A DNA stretch of 64,000 nucleotides from an uncultured Lachnospiraceae bacterium (GTDB lineage Bacteria; Bacillota; Clostridia; Lachnospirales; Lachnospiraceae), in NCBI GenBank assembly GCA_910578605.1, contig CAJTQG010000007.1, positions 1,577-65,576 on the forward strand. Reading direction: 5' to 3'. Position 1 is the first letter of the stretch, and every line of letters starts with the position of its first letter. Of the stretch, positions 1-50,958 are shown piece by piece. The position numbers and the translations under genes were made by a program. Under the pieces are notes generated by a model. The model worked only from the letters and a program-made list of their open reading frames with translations. It was not told where the DNA came from and searched no databases.

Positions 1-3000
1 ACAGGACAACAACCACACAAATTTAATAGATTTTCGTTTTAATTTGGATGTGATTTCCGCTGTAGACAAGGATTCCTCTCCAAACTTTAAATTTTGAGGG
101 TTCCCATGACAATAAATAATAACTCCGGTCGGACTGTTTAAATCGTTCCATTTCTGCACAAAATCACTTTTTTTGCTGATAAAATTATTTTTCACATCCC
201 CGCCCTTTTTCATATAATTTACCCACAAGGTACATGTTGAGCGGAAGGAATTCCAATCATTTGGAAACTGATTATAAGCATTTTTTGCAGTAAATATTCT
301 TAAAGTGACAGGTGCATTTCCATTTGGGTCCACCTGATTTACCGGATCGTTATTGCAATATAGATAAAGGTTTAAGTTATCAAAATCCTGATAAACTTTC
401 TCCAAAAAATCCGCATTGATAAATCTTCCGATTCTGCTGTCATAATAACGGTTTTTCAAATAATAAAATCCAGTCTCCTCGTCATAGTAGTAGCTTCGAT
501 AGCGGTACTTGTTTGCCTTGGCAGCATTTTCATCCCCCTGTATTTCGACTAGATTGCCCCACGCATCGTAGGTATAGCTGCATACCCTTTCTCCCCTCTG
601 ATTTAACAACGCTGTTACATCATTTTGCGCATTTTTTTCGTAATAGTATATTTTGTCATTGAAAACAAATCCGGTTACCTTCATTTCTCCATCGTACATA
701 TACCAGATTACATTGTCCTCTGTTTTCTCACAGATAATATCCTGTCCCTCCAATACATAAGAAGTGGTAATGCCATTGACTGTTTTTGAATTTCGTATTC
801 CTTCCTCGTTGTATGTGTAACTTACCTCATTATTTGATGTTTGTATGTTATCCAGTCTTCTTCCTGTCCATTGCATATTCATTCCCTGTATATAGTTCAC
901 AGGGTTTCCTATGGCATCATAAGAAATCAATTCACCGTCAATAGTTTTTACCTGGTCCGTCCAGCCATTGCCATAAGTTAAACTCTGTTCCGATAACAGC
1001 TTGTCCCTATGGTATTCACAGCATTTCTTTGATGTTATATTCCCATACTTGTCATAAGTATAATAATAACTCTGATTTACCTGAGGATTATGTTCTTCCA
1101 CAAGCTGTCCCTTTTTATCATACTTGTATTGAAGCTTGAGCTGTCCGTTTTGATATATTTCACTTAGTTTATTTTCTTTTGTGTACACATATTTTTCCGT
1201 ATCTTTGTTTTGATATGCAATTTCTGTTATATTGGATTCGGACATAGTATAGACCGTTTTTATTGTTACACCATTTTTTTCCTGTATCTCTTTTATCTTT
1301 TGATTGTCGTTATCACTGTACAGCATTTGCCCTGCCCCTGAAATAAGCTTTGTACTATATCCTTGTACATTATTCTGAGCTGCCTGATAATATATAGTAT
1401 GAATTTTTTTCTTTCCCTCTATCTCATATGTAATTTTATAATAATCCTCAGAATACTCATAATTTATCTGATTGCCCAATGTATCCGAAATTTGTTTTAA
1501 ATTCTGTTCTTTATCATATTGATAATGGTATGTTACATTGTTTTTATGATTATAGATGGATTTCACCACTTTATTTTCATAATCAAAGGAATACACCAAC
1601 TGATTATTTTCATATATCTTTTCTAAGCACCCCTCACTGTTATAGCAATATTCAAACTTATCATGATTTCCATATTGCTCCCACTGCAGATTTTGCTTTG
1701 TCTCACTGTGTTTATACAACTTTTGTGCAATGTAAATATCAGAGGTTTCCTCCTGCATGATGACATCATCCAGGCATTCCTCATCCGTTTGATGAATGGC
1801 TTTTTGTTTTTTCTCTATATCATAATTCATTCCATTGCGGGAAATACCTGCAATCTGACCATTTTCGTATCGATAAACTATGGCATAGGAAGCTTCCTCA
1901 TTATCCACCACAACTGCTGTCAGTTTCTCTTCTAAATCGTAATAATATTTTGTGGTTTTTCCCTCTTCCGTAATGTATTGTATGTTGTCATTGATAAAGT
2001 TGTATCCATATAGATAACAATTTCCCTGTGCATCCATACATATTCCCTGCCTGTCAAATATACCTGTTTTCTTTTCCTCGGTGTAATCTGCTTCCCCGTT
2101 TTTCTCTTCTGTATATTTCTCCAGTTCATTAAAACGCCACGGATTGTCATCCCTGCTGTCAGGCTCCCCGTCAAAATCTGAATCCTTCAAATAGGGATTG
2201 GTCTGTTTCATAAGCTCCTGTTTATTCCATAAACCATCTTTGTCAAAGTCCGAATCTTCTGTGTATACATTGGGGTCTGTATAGAGATAAAATGCTTCTG
2301 CATAATCGTCAAATCCATCATGGTCCGTATCCGCCTCATATGGATTGGTATGCAAATACCAGATTTCAACACCATCTGCAATTCCGTCCTTGTCACTGTC
2401 ATGCTTCAAGGTGCATAATTCCTTCTCCTCTCCTCCTTCTTTTGCATCTTCCATATCATATCCTACAGTAACAATCGTGGCATCTGCTTTATCTCCAAAC
2501 AAGGTGTGCCCTACTACTGTGATATCTATTGTCTCCTTAAAATCTAAATTTTTCAGTTCATATTCCGTTGCTGTAATAGTTTCTAAGTAACAAAACTGAC
2601 TTTCATTATCCCTGCGCACATAAATATCACTGGATTCCAATTTTATATTACTTTCCAAATTTATATAAATAGAATTATCCTCATTGACTGCTGCTGCAAC
2701 GGCAACTACTGCACCATTCTTATAATGGGAGAGGGCCTGGTAAATCTTTTCTGTTTCCTTTACGCCCAATATCTGAATTTTGCTGCCATACATCTCTGTT
2801 TTTTCTGATATAACAGCACCGGTTATGTCTATATTCGTTCCGTTGATTACCACCTTTCCGTTTGGTGCATATAGCAGCCCTGTATATTGCATCTGTGAGG
2901 TGTTAATATATATATTGCCGTTTTGAGAATAAAGAATCGTATAGTCTAACGCCTTGATATCGGCACAATTGATTTGAATATCATCCTTGGCATATATTAC

Positions 3001-3387
3001 ATTGTTTAAGATTGTTTCTGATGTATGAATTTCAATGGATTTTTTGCTGTAGATAGAATGCTGATTATGAAATTGATTATTTTGATAAAAAAAATTATTA
3101 GAATATATTTGAGCCTCCTCCTGTAACATTCCTGAAATACCATCGTGCAGTTTCGGAAGCTTATCCGTTTCCACAATTTTTCCTTTTATGTCTATTTTAC
3201 TCCCCTGCTTTATGAACTTACCTGTCTCTATCACTGTTGCCCCATACTCATCATCCATGCTTATGTTTAAGCTCTTTGCAAAGACTTGCCTGTTGACACA
3301 CTGCATTACCAGCAATGTCATACACATAAGCAGCGCTGCTCCTCTTTTTACATAACTCCTTATTGTTTTCTTTACTAGTGAATTCAT
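1..3387 (-). CDS. RHS/YD-repeat polymorphic toxin (partial; C-terminal toxin domain runs off window start)
   Basis: Continuous minus-strand frame from ATG at 3387 (RBS GGAGGAAAA) to beyond position 1. It is not in the ORF track because there is no stop in the window; several spot-checked stretches translate in frame. The product has an N-terminal signal peptide (MNSLVKKTIRSYVKRGAALLMCMTLLV), multiple DxDxDG thrombospondin-type-3-like repeats, YD repeats, and the RHS core end DNLNLYLYCNNDPVNQVDPNGN at about 305-380. This is followed by a divergent C-terminal domain (…GVIIYCHGNPQNL…LSC). Confidence 0.75.
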   Translation of the reverse strand, partial: MNSLVKKTIRSYVKRGAALLMCMTLLVMQCVNRQVFAKSLNISMDDEYGATVIETGKFIKQGSKIDIKGKIVETDKLPKLHDGISGMLQEEAQIYSNNFFYQNNQFHNQHSIYSKKSIEIHTSETILNNVIYAKDDIQINCADIKALDYTILYSQNGNIYINTSQMQYTGLLYAPNGKVVINGTNIDITGAVISEKTEMYGSKIQILGVKETEKIYQALSHYKNGAVVAVAAAVNEDNSIYINLESNIKLESSDIYVRRDNESQFCYLETITATEYELKNLDFKETIDITVVGHTLFGDKADATIVTVGYDMEDAKEGGEEKELCTLKHDSDKDGIADGVEIWYLHTNPYEADTDHDGFDDYAEAFYLYTDPNVYTEDSDFDKDGLWNKQELMKQTNPYLKDSDFDGEPDSRDDNPWRFNELEKYTEEKNGEADYTEEKKTGIFDRQGICMDAQGNCYLYGYNFINDNIQYITEEGKTTKYYYDLEEKLTAVVVDNEEASYAIVYRYENGQIAGISRNGMNYDIEKKQKAIHQTDEECLDDVIMQEETSDIYIAQKLYKHSETKQNLQWEQYGNHDKFEYCYNSEGCLEKIYENNQLVYSFDYENKVVKSIYNHKNNVTYHYQYDKEQNLKQISDTLGNQINYEYSEDYYKITYEIEGKKKIHTIYYQAAQNNVQGYSTKLISGAGQMLYSDNDNQKIKEIQEKNGVTIKTVYTMSESNITEIAYQNKDTEKYVYTKENKLSEIYQNGQLKLQYKYDKKGQLVEEHNPQVNQSYYYTYDKYGNITSKKCCEYHRDKLLSEQSLTYGNGWTDQVKTIDGELISYDAIGNPVNYIQGMNMQWTGRRLDNIQTSNNEVSYTYNEEGIRNSKTVNGITTSYVLEGQDIICEKTEDNVIWYMYDGEMKVTGFVFNDKIYYYEKNAQNDVTALLNQRGERVCSYTYDAWGNLVEIQGDENAAKANKYRYRSYYYDEETGFYYLKNRYYDSRIGRFINADFLEKVYQDFDNLNLYLYCNNDPVNQVDPNGNAPVTLRIFTAKNAYNQFPNDWNSFRSTCTLWVNYMKKGGDVKNNFISKKSDFVQKWNDLNSPTGVIIYCHGNPQNLKFGEESLSTAEITSKLKRKSIKFVWLLSC

Positions 3388-3467
3388 TTTTTCCTCCATT
3401 CTTAATTGTTTTGTGCTGATTTTTTGCGTTTTTGTTTCTTTTATATTGGAAACAGGAAGTTTTATCA

Positions 3468-3592
3468 ACGCAAAAAGGCTGCAAGATTTTAACATCCTGC
3501 AGCCGAACTATCATTGTAATATAGATTATATCCTTACTTTAGACTTCTAGCTTTGCGTCCCCACATTTCCATAGGTTTGCCCCTTATTATTC
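3468..3592 (-). promoter_or_regulatory. c-di-GMP-I (GEMM) riboswitch-like leader, copy 1, with intrinsic terminator; proximal to the RHS gene
   Basis: Minus-strand sequence AAUAAGGGGCAAACCUAUGGAAAUGUGGGGACGCAAAGCUAGAAGUCUAAAG… matches GEMM-I hallmarks (GGCAAACC, GAAA-capped hairpin, GGGACGCAAAGC). It ends in the hairpin GGCUGCAGGAUGUUAAAAUCUUGCAGCC plus UUUUU, about 85 nt upstream of the RHS ATG. Confidence 0.65.
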
Positions 3593-3637
3593 TCTTGTAT
3601 TCTATTTATCTATACTCTATATTTTTATCCTTTGTTC

Positions 3638-50683: not shown

Positions 50684-50714
50684 GGCTCTTCTTTCCTTTC
50701 CCTGTTTCTTTGTT

Positions 50715-50830
50715 ATTAGGCATTGCAAAACACATTCAAAAAGTTCATAATTGTGCGAAATTTACAATTTACATCAGATGCGATAGGATTTGTGATTTAG
50801 ATGTTCTTAGTATTCTTTATTGTATAAGGC
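50715..50830. repeat. ~110 bp repeat (copy B) in the 5' UTR/promoter of the secreted protein gene
   Basis: Homologous to 34455-34560, including the AATTGTGCgAAATTTACAATT palindrome and one TIR-like arm. Confidence 0.5.
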
Positions 50831-50845
50831 AAAATTTACTATACA

Positions 50846-50958
50846 AATAAAAAAGGCTGCAAGAATATAGAAATTCCTGCAACCGAACTATCCTAGGTTA
50901 ATATCCCCCTTAGACTCCCAGCTTTGCGTCCATGCATTTCTGTCATGTTTGCCTTTAG
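50846..50958 (-). promoter_or_regulatory. c-di-GMP-I (GEMM) riboswitch-like leader, copy 3, with intrinsic terminator
   Basis: Minus strand: AAAGGCAAACAUGACAGAAAUGCAUGGACGCAAAGCUGGGAGUCUAAGG…GGUUGCAGGAAUUUCUAUAUUCUUGCAGCC UUUUUU. The hairpin covaries relative to copies 1 and 2. Confidence 0.6.

Follow-up and report, generated by a model that had tools for sequence, protein, structure and literature searches.

We analyzed a 64,000-nucleotide stretch (hereafter, the window) of contig CAJTQG010000007.1, from the genome assembly GCA_910578605.1 of an uncultured Lachnospiraceae bacterium, that carries a chemosensory (che) operon with two HD-GYP-domain genes together with three class I riboswitches for the second messenger cyclic di-GMP (c-di-GMP), the latter preceding an RHS/YD-repeat toxin gene (RHS#1) and the gene of a secreted, lysozyme-like protein with CBM2 domains. 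Our results favor, with a probability of about 70%, the view that the three transcription units of the window are independent parts of one c-di-GMP network, linked solely by the diffusible messenger, i.e., not a circuit that is wired locally. In this model, a chemosensory core (the methyl-accepting chemotaxis protein, MCP, with CheW, CheA, CheR, CheB, and CheY), along with a cytoplasmic PAS-domain kinase, would be coupled to two REC-HD-GYP proteins, and phosphorylation of one of the two, protein A (29306-30394), would most likely activate c-di-GMP hydrolysis. Two tandem riboswitches would gate transcription into the locus of the Sec-secreted RHS/YD toxin, and a single riboswitch (unit 3) would do the same for the CBM2 lysozyme-like protein and a small membrane protein encoded with it. 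At low c-di-GMP the terminators would form, and any phosphodiesterase active in the cell, that of the che cassette included, would then turn both effector units down.

Conservation of the gene neighborhoods

The three transcription units lie 16 and 20 kb apart, and core genes (ftsH, tilS, spoIIE, yabP/Q, spoVT, and others) stand between them; spoIIE, spoVT, and yabP/Q indicate that the source organism is a spore-forming Firmicute. The che/HD-GYP operon is a self-contained, conserved cassette, present at ~70% identity in many Lachnospiraceae. Orthologs of its second HD-GYP protein (protein B) form more than 100 clusters at 66-71% identity, all of about 353 amino acids (aa), and those that carry a name are from Lachnospiraceae. 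We read the context of the cassette over 10 kb per side in three other species (contigs L012, L013, and L014, of 101-347 kb), where the gene order is Hpt, REC-HD-GYP, PAS histidine kinase, REC-CD-GYP, CheR, CheB, CheY, CheA, CheW, and MCP. In each of the three, the genes on either side of the cassette are wholly unrelated, and no c-di-GMP-I aptamer was detected within the 10 kb on either side. The Hpt gene, which is last in the operon of the source species (19838-20191), is first in these three relatives (about 6900-7290), a local rearrangement.

The riboswitch-RHS unit was found apart from the cassette as well. The closest homolog of RHS#1 for which upstream DNA is available (L015, from Logan SRR31203344; 56% identity) is preceded by a single c-di-GMP-I riboswitch (57.2 bits), located 95 nt before the RHS start codon, and this unit sits in a gene context different from that of the window and does not adjoin a che cassette. 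No riboswitch was found with three further RHS homologs, at 30-33% identity. With SpoIIE as a mid-point synteny anchor, the scan of genome contigs returned no relative, and a homolog search gave five matches, none of them useful.

Given the flanks of the cassette in the three relatives and the context in L015, co-localization of the units is not conserved across species. The original prediction had taken the window for one coherent circuit, leading from a Che-like sensor array through HD-GYP phosphodiesterases to riboswitches on toxin and secreted-protein genes. The unrelated flanks, which are free of aptamers, as well as the different location of the riboswitch-RHS unit in L015 and the core genes that separate the units of the window, do not bear this out, and the dedicated, one-locus circuit is the weakest part of that prediction.

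The class I riboswitches and their predicted direction

An Rfam scan at the gathering threshold (35 bits for RF01051, c-di-GMP-I) identified three aptamers in the window, all on the minus strand and each matched over model positions 1-87 (Table 1). The three aptamer-like leaders that had been proposed from the sequence are thus upheld, at 48.5-70.5 bits and each with its own terminator; the aptamer of unit 1 scores 53 bits in strain L002. A pattern built from the common core of the three aptamers (spacer of 17-18) had three matches in the window and none in 100 shuffles. The G that we take to be equivalent to G20, which presumably sets specificity for c-di-GMP, is kept in all three.

Directly after each aptamer there is a GC-containing, terminator-like hairpin of 11-12 bp with a U-tract, and the 5' arm of this hairpin (GGCUGCAGGA or GGUUGCAGGA) starts within the last helix of the aptamer, overlapping the aptamer 3' end. 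When folded in isolation, the aptamer segment of unit 2 and that of unit 3 each take on the two-hairpin structure of the Rfam model. In the full leader, the 11-12 bp terminator is favored by 10-15 kcal/mol, for which it requires the GGCU and GC bases of the aptamer 3' end, and when the aptamer is locked in the folding, a 5-6 bp hairpin that is detached from the U-tract is all that remains. By terminator overlap and folding, a coupled expression platform is thus present for all three aptamers, and the riboswitch of the RHS homolog in L015 has a platform of the same design. Since the 5' arm of the terminator contains the last aptamer bases, ligand binding should block termination, and all three riboswitches are predicted to be ON switches, with expression on at high and off at low c-di-GMP. 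With such ON logic, the RHS and muramidase-like genes would be expressed less whenever an active phosphodiesterase, whichever it is, drains the common pool of messenger. For a phosphodiesterase to lower the expression of riboswitch-controlled genes in this way is ordinary c-di-GMP logic. The proposal that lower c-di-GMP switches the toxin through riboswitches therefore stands in part, in that the ON platforms predict shut-off, but the dedicated wiring of the locus that went with it does not.

Units 1 and 2 are arranged in tandem, each with an aptamer and a terminator of its own and with unit 2 proximal to RHS#1. Unit 1 begins 13 nt past the stop codon of an upstream gene of 348 aa, for which an exact sequence look-up gave no record. 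The promoter-like site between the two units is stronger (11/12) than the one just upstream of unit 1 (10/12), and with sites in both places the number of checkpoints that a transcript meets, one or two, may depend on its start.

Two characterized systems of Bacillus thuringiensis are close in design. Bc2, which precedes the cap adhesin gene, is a validated ON switch in which c-di-GMP binding gives read-through (PMC4933901), and it resembles the units described here in its class I aptamer with a rho-independent terminator platform and in its surface-type target. Bc3-5 consists of complete c-di-GMP-I units in triple tandem and gives a sharper, more digital response (PMC4759541), and it has in common with the window class I aptamers, rho-independent terminators, and the tandem arrangement of complete units. 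Unlike in these systems, the riboswitches of the window are located before the locus of an RHS polymorphic toxin and the gene of a lysozyme-like enzyme, the tandem units have a strong promoter-like site between them, and unit 1 abuts an upstream stop codon. Tandem class I aptamers recur outside Bacillus: two metagenome contigs carry tandem matches to the aptamer core, three at a spacing of 187 nt in L038 (161-577) and two in L034 (21-253).

The che/HD-GYP operon

The operon comprises ten minus-strand genes, identified by Pfam, from ~30464 to 19750, and has a single strong promoter-like site ahead of it and a single strong terminator-like site behind it. MCP, CheW, CheA, CheR, CheB, and outputs with a REC domain occur together in this one co-directional cluster, which qualifies it as a Che system. 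The HD-GYP genes lie within a che operon whose gene arrangement is maintained in at least four species of Lachnospiraceae. It is therefore reasonable to assume that the HD-GYP output receives a chemosensory or phosphorelay input, and we infer from this conserved gene neighborhood that CheA may phosphorylate the REC-HD-GYP proteins. A PAS histidine kinase gene is found between the two HD-GYP genes, however, so that CheA is not the sole candidate kinase.

The best matches of protein A in the PDB are PA4781 (E value of 6e-36) and PmGH (1e-35). The protein has the HD dyad, the HHExxDGxGYP motif, and the residues at 8/8 ligand positions of PmGH, a list that we take to be that of the metal ligands and that agrees with the alignment. 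On these sequence grounds, protein A is a probable active c-di-GMP phosphodiesterase. Protein B has an intact GYP motif but lacks the full HD-GYP signature. Compared with PmGH, its orthologs have C for H221 (119/120), Y for E185 (109/120), and N for K225 (111/120), and E or D in place of D305. The motif of the resulting Cys-Asp dyad is PLCDIGNIG, and the GYP motif is invariant across the 120 orthologs (P0001-P0120). The conservation of these replacements across 120 orthologs points to a distinct, selected "CD-GYP" subfamily and not to a decaying copy, and protein B is most likely a non-canonical or non-catalytic partner. In the c-di-GMP-degrading module that had been assigned to 19838-30397, the ten genes are thus confirmed by Pfam, but just one of the two HD-GYPs keeps the full catalytic signature. 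Among the non-shadow open reading frames (ORFs) of at least 100 aa in the window, Pfam detected no GGDEF or EAL domains, consistent with the original prediction that no GGDEF cyclase is encoded here; c-di-GMP being diffusible, a stretch of 64 kb without GGDEF is not informative on the rest of the genome.

Precedents exist for c-di-GMP under chemosensory control, namely the Wsp system and Pch, a CheA-bound phosphodiesterase of Pseudomonas aeruginosa. Given that the site of action of Pch is the CheA complex, a chemosensory decrease in c-di-GMP would not be the first of its kind. The cassette resembles Wsp (Pseudomonas; alternative cellular functions (ACF) class, with the REC-GGDEF protein WspR as output) in having MCP, CheW, CheA, CheR, and CheB encoded in one operon with a REC-coupled enzyme of c-di-GMP turnover. 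It differs from Wsp in that its output is HD-GYP (degradation) instead of GGDEF (synthesis), in that it has two REC-HD-GYP paralogs (one of them Cys-Asp), a separate CheY, a PAS histidine kinase, and an Hpt protein, and in its host, a Gram-positive Lachnospiraceae bacterium. With RpfG of the RpfC/RpfG system (Xanthomonas) and PA4781 (P. aeruginosa) it shares the REC-HD-GYP architecture, but these are driven by ordinary sensor kinases and are not encoded within a che operon. A review of sensory inputs lists ACF (Wsp) and type IV pili (TFP) as the chemosensory classes that modulate c-di-GMP (PMC8846402), and in the literature that we searched there was no characterized che operon with HD-GYP outputs.

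Just beyond the end of the operon, at 19575-19644 on the minus strand, a terminator-like hairpin of 11 bp comes no more than 15 nt after a promoter-like sequence (TTGACA-17-TAATAT with TG). These elements lie ~200 nt upstream of a small ORF (18990-19294/19370), match no Rfam family, and could represent a leader or attenuator.

The two effector loci

RHS#1 passes the left edge of the window, and its full length of 1244 aa is seen in contigs of the same species (L002-L009). The layout of the protein consists of a Sec signal peptide, DUF7305, TSP3 repeats, a YD shell that ends in DPVNQVDPNG, and a C-terminal domain of ~220 aa. With matches to RHS_repeat and TEN_YD-shell, a DPxG-type core motif, and a variable C-terminus, it belongs with the RHS polymorphic toxins, and homologs at 30-58% identity share the architecture. 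The C-terminal ~220 aa have no match in Pfam or the PDB. Motifs in this region (L004, 3243-3900, partly window 1-330) read YFHGNP and LLSCNTGH and resemble a His/Cys catalytic dyad. Downstream of RHS#1 in L002-L009, past the edge of the window, there are one or two copies of a gene for a lipoprotein of 159-165 aa, which is a candidate immunity protein, again with no Pfam or PDB match. The presence of one or two near-identical lipoproteins after the toxin gene (L004, 2200-3220) suggests an extracytoplasmic target.

The lipoprotein gene(s) are followed by an acyl carrier protein (ACP)-like gene, a CapK-like ligase gene, and a second RHS gene (RHS#2) that lacks its own riboswitch. An acyl-carrier-like protein and an adenylate-forming ligase repeatedly adjoin RHS genes of this family: ACP and CapK_C genes precede RHS#2 in the source species (L002-L009, about 1000-2520), PP-binding and AMP-binding genes come before the RHS homolog of L019 (4429-5986), and an AMP-binding/PP-binding fusion comes after that of L018 (8986-10686). 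In the WapA-type RHS/YD toxins of Bacillus subtilis and Streptococcus suis as well (cf. PMC12704120), a signal peptide and an N-terminal region for surface binding precede a YD/RHS shell and a variable C-terminal toxin, and small immunity-like genes lie downstream. RHS#1 differs from these in its N-terminus (DUF7305 and TSP3 repeats), in a toxin domain without family match, in candidate immunity proteins that are lipoproteins, and in its position behind c-di-GMP riboswitches.

The gene at 49205-50683, which unit 3 precedes, encodes a protein whose C-terminal 232 aa matched nothing in Pfam, NCBIfam, or a phmmer search of the PDB, and a profile search of the PDB with this domain returned just an insignificant match to a g-type lysozyme (E value of 0.46). 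The domain is nonetheless common to 286 representatives, with conserved Glu, DSSTGLGQI, and ARYNGTG motifs, and E71 is present in at least 90% of 32 aligned sequences. AlphaFold2 modeled it with a pLDDT (predicted local distance difference test) of 96.1 from the alignment vs. 47.7 from the single sequence, and the best Foldseek match of the model in the PDB was Tse3, a type VI secretion system (T6SS) muramidase (probability 1.0, E value of 0.011, TM score 0.47-0.49), followed by MltE, g-type lysozymes, and Slt. The fold match together with the conserved Glu places the domain, on a best E value of just 0.011, with the lysozyme-like (GH23/lytic transglycosylase) folds, and the model and the Tse3/MltE matches agree with the earlier description of the protein as lysozyme-like. 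In structure, the domain comes closest to Tse3 of P. aeruginosa, GH23 lytic transglycosylases, and g-type lysozymes, with Glu, GLGQ, and YNG conserved, but sequence identity to Tse3/GH23 is 12-14%, with no significant sequence match. A further difference from Tse3 is the Sec-dependent secretion of the protein and its fusion to CBM_2 domains, as opposed to T6SS delivery. The 112-aa membrane protein encoded right after it is possibly an immunity or accessory protein. With RHS#1 and the CBM2 protein, the products of both riboswitch-controlled loci thus belong to types of Sec-secreted protein that are known above all as weapons against bacteria.

Table 1. Annotated features of the window, in order of position
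Feature	Position	Strand	Description
RHS#1, RHS/YD-repeat polymorphic toxin gene	1..3387	-	5' 1129 of 1244 codons; Pfam RHS_repeat, TSP3_bac; DUF7305
Riboswitch unit 2	3477..3591	-	Aptamer 3495-3591, Rfam 70.5 bits, E value 8.5e-12; terminator 3504-3477, 11 pairs + U-tract
Promoter-like site, between tandem units	3644..3672	-	TTGACA-17-TATTAT, 11/12
Riboswitch unit 1	3789..3910	-	Aptamer 3807-3910, Rfam 48.5 bits; terminator 3816-3789
Promoter-like site, just upstream of unit 1	3917..3946	-	TTGGCT-18-TATAAT, 10/12; within end of upstream ORF
Terminator-like hairpin closing che/HD-GYP operon	19750..19781	-	13 pairs
Small Hpt-like protein	19838..20191	-	Weak Pfam match
MCP	20211..21560	-	HAMP + MCPsignal, short N-terminus (Pfam)
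CheW	21573..22118	-	Pfam
CheA	22145..24283	-	Hpt, P2, dimerization, HATPase, CheW-like domains (Pfam)
CheY-like single-domain response regulator	24320..24712	-	Pfam
CheB methylesterase	24727..25755	-	Pfam
CheR methyltransferase	25775..26581	-	Pfam
Protein B, REC + divergent HD-GYP ("CD-GYP")	26623..27684	-	Pfam REC + HD_5; HHExxDGxGYP intact
Cytoplasmic PAS-HisKA-HATPase histidine kinase	27704..29125	-	C-terminal helical extension (Pfam)
Protein A, REC-HD-GYP	29306..30394	-	Pfam REC + HD_5; 8/8 PmGH metal-ligand positions + GYP motif
Promoter-like site upstream of che/HD-GYP operon	30436..30464	-	Extended -10, 11/12
112-aa multi-pass membrane protein	48855..49193	-	Starts 11 nt after muramidase-like gene
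Secreted CBM2 + lysozyme-like protein gene	49205..50683	-	Signal peptide, two CBM_2 (Pfam), C-terminal Tse3/MltE/GH23-like domain
Riboswitch unit 3	50855..50963	-	Aptamer 50875-50963, Rfam 61.9 bits; terminator 50884-50855, 12 pairs
Promoter-like site upstream of unit 3	50989..51017	-	TTGACA-17-TAACAT with TG

Riboswitch targets in metagenomes

We sampled 120 metagenome loci with the class I aptamer core (748 kb in total). The most frequent Pfam families among the 95 distinct genes downstream of these aptamers were CBM_2 (6 genes), VWA (6), EAL (5), Flg_new (4), T2SSE (3), HDOD (3), SLH (3), and TSP3_bac (3), and an RHS core was found in none (0/95). An association with RHS genes as a general property of class I riboswitches was rejected on this count. 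CBM2-type secreted proteins (6/95) are thus ordinary targets and the RHS toxin is not. The literature searched contained no link between a c-di-GMP riboswitch and an Rhs, YD-repeat, or polymorphic toxin, and the riboswitch gating of an RHS toxin is in this sense new.

The window also includes an RNA of another family, a full-length TwoAYGGAY motif (RF01731, 97.7 bits; 34527-34694, plus strand). It lies between a divergent gene for the RNA ligase RtcB (33192-34433, minus strand) and two consecutive genes with weak WYL-domain matches (35015-37477, plus strand), a neighborhood that may be informative on this motif.

Discussion

Alternatively, it is possible that the window is a functional module, in which a chemosensory signal activates the HD-GYPs of the cassette, c-di-GMP falls locally or globally, and the riboswitch terminators form. 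All the parts that such a dedicated circuit requires are present and look intact, the predicted ON logic gives it a coherent sign, strains of the species all have the same arrangement, HD-GYP genes are enriched beside c-di-GMP-I riboswitches elsewhere, and the RHS operon of L015 carries an HD-GYP gene. We nevertheless consider this circuit improbable, given that the cassette has unrelated flanks and no riboswitch nearby in three other species, that the riboswitch-RHS unit of L015 is not beside a che cassette, that core sporulation and housekeeping genes fill the 16-20 kb between the units, that CheA genes were found in 0/120 of the metagenome riboswitch loci, and that nothing ties the cassette phosphodiesterase to these riboswitches above the others in the genome. 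A different objection concerns the cassette itself, namely that its HD-GYPs may not control c-di-GMP at all but hydrolyze 3'3'-cGAMP (cyclic GMP-AMP) or pGpG, or serve as phosphorylation-dependent adaptors, in which case the operon would be unrelated to the riboswitches. Protein A also matches a cGAMP-specific HD-GYP (5z7c; 1e-25), and protein B is without three of the eight metal-ligand residues, with replacements that are conserved in 120 orthologs. This possibility appears quite remote to us, however, since PA4781 and PmGH are better matches of protein A, which keeps all ligand positions and the GYP motif, and since the genome uses c-di-GMP, as judged from three class I aptamers with the G that we equate with G20 and that presumably confers specificity.

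The direction of the riboswitches could also be the reverse, i.e., c-di-GMP would promote termination, and a phosphodiesterase would then induce both effectors in cells with low c-di-GMP (motile cells). Class I riboswitches of Clostridioides difficile have mostly been characterized as OFF switches, and the minimum-free-energy fold of unit 3 has the second aptamer hairpin alongside a 9 bp hairpin. We regard OFF switches as unlikely here because the 5' arm of the terminator takes in the closing pairs of the aptamer and a base that we take to be equivalent to C92, a classic ON design, because no separate anti-terminator element is evident, because the locked aptamer leaves just the short hairpin away from the U-tract, and because the targets are surface- or contact-type proteins, as in the case of the ON-regulated Bc2/cap.

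Several observations weigh against our preferred model of three separate units, and should be kept in mind. The ON assignment comes from folding logic, set against the OFF behavior of most C. difficile examples, and the neighborhood comparison covers three relatives and 10 kb on each side of the cassette. Several metagenome-assembled genomes of the same species hold all units on the same contig, so that the arrangement is stable within the species and the linkage could be functional at that level. In L015 (1-6700), two genes of the same orientation come after the RHS gene, the first of 169 aa and the second a dCache_1-HD-GYP gene with an intact catalytic signature, and the first terminator-like site lies past the latter, which suggests a riboswitch-controlled operon that includes its own phosphodiesterase, i.e., negative feedback. 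Further, HD-GYP genes are present in 9/120 metagenome loci, always on the riboswitch strand (L024, L031, L070, L071, L081, L093, and L108; also L058 and L076). In the first seven, which represent about four or five lineages and are out of about 81-94 evaluable loci (those with at least 600-1000 nt of upstream DNA), the aptamer lies 91-504 nt past the end of an HD-GYP gene. The architectures are REC-HD-GYP, GGDEF-HD-GYP, and HD-GYP with an unassigned N-terminus, and in L058 the aptamer lies directly before an HD-GYP-like ORF. It would thus seem that HD-GYP genes and riboswitch readers are indeed paired in compact form. This pairing is on the scale of adjacent genes, as opposed to the 16-20 kb of the window, and the same 120 loci contained no CheA gene. 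The recurrent HD-GYP genes directly upstream of c-di-GMP-I riboswitches and the conserved CD-GYP subfamily represent, along with the riboswitch gating of an RHS toxin, the newer points of this analysis.

It is tempting to go further than three units sharing a messenger and to hypothesize that c-di-GMP is a master switch of antagonism in gut Lachnospiraceae. That is, ON riboswitches would license the RHS toxin and the Tse3-like muramidase at high c-di-GMP, when cells are sessile and crowded, with the doubling of the riboswitch sharpening the threshold, the che cassette with its HD-GYP and CD-GYP would disarm the cells in response to a signal, and the HD-GYP genes beside riboswitches elsewhere would be the compact form of the same arrangement. 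We offer this idea as speculation, on the unlikely side as a whole.

Regardless, the invariant Cys-for-His paralog poses a biochemical question, i.e., whether protein B has an altered metal center or acts as a sensor, and the che/HD-GYP cassette, uncharacterized and found across many Lachnospiraceae, lends itself to study as a candidate degradative counterpart of Wsp. If the riboswitches work as predicted, a second messenger acts directly on RNA to gate a polymorphic toxin and an enzyme that degrades the cell wall, for which we found no description in the literature searched. If so, the decision between sessile and motile life would be tied to bacterial competition without a protein regulator, and this in abundant commensals of the gut.

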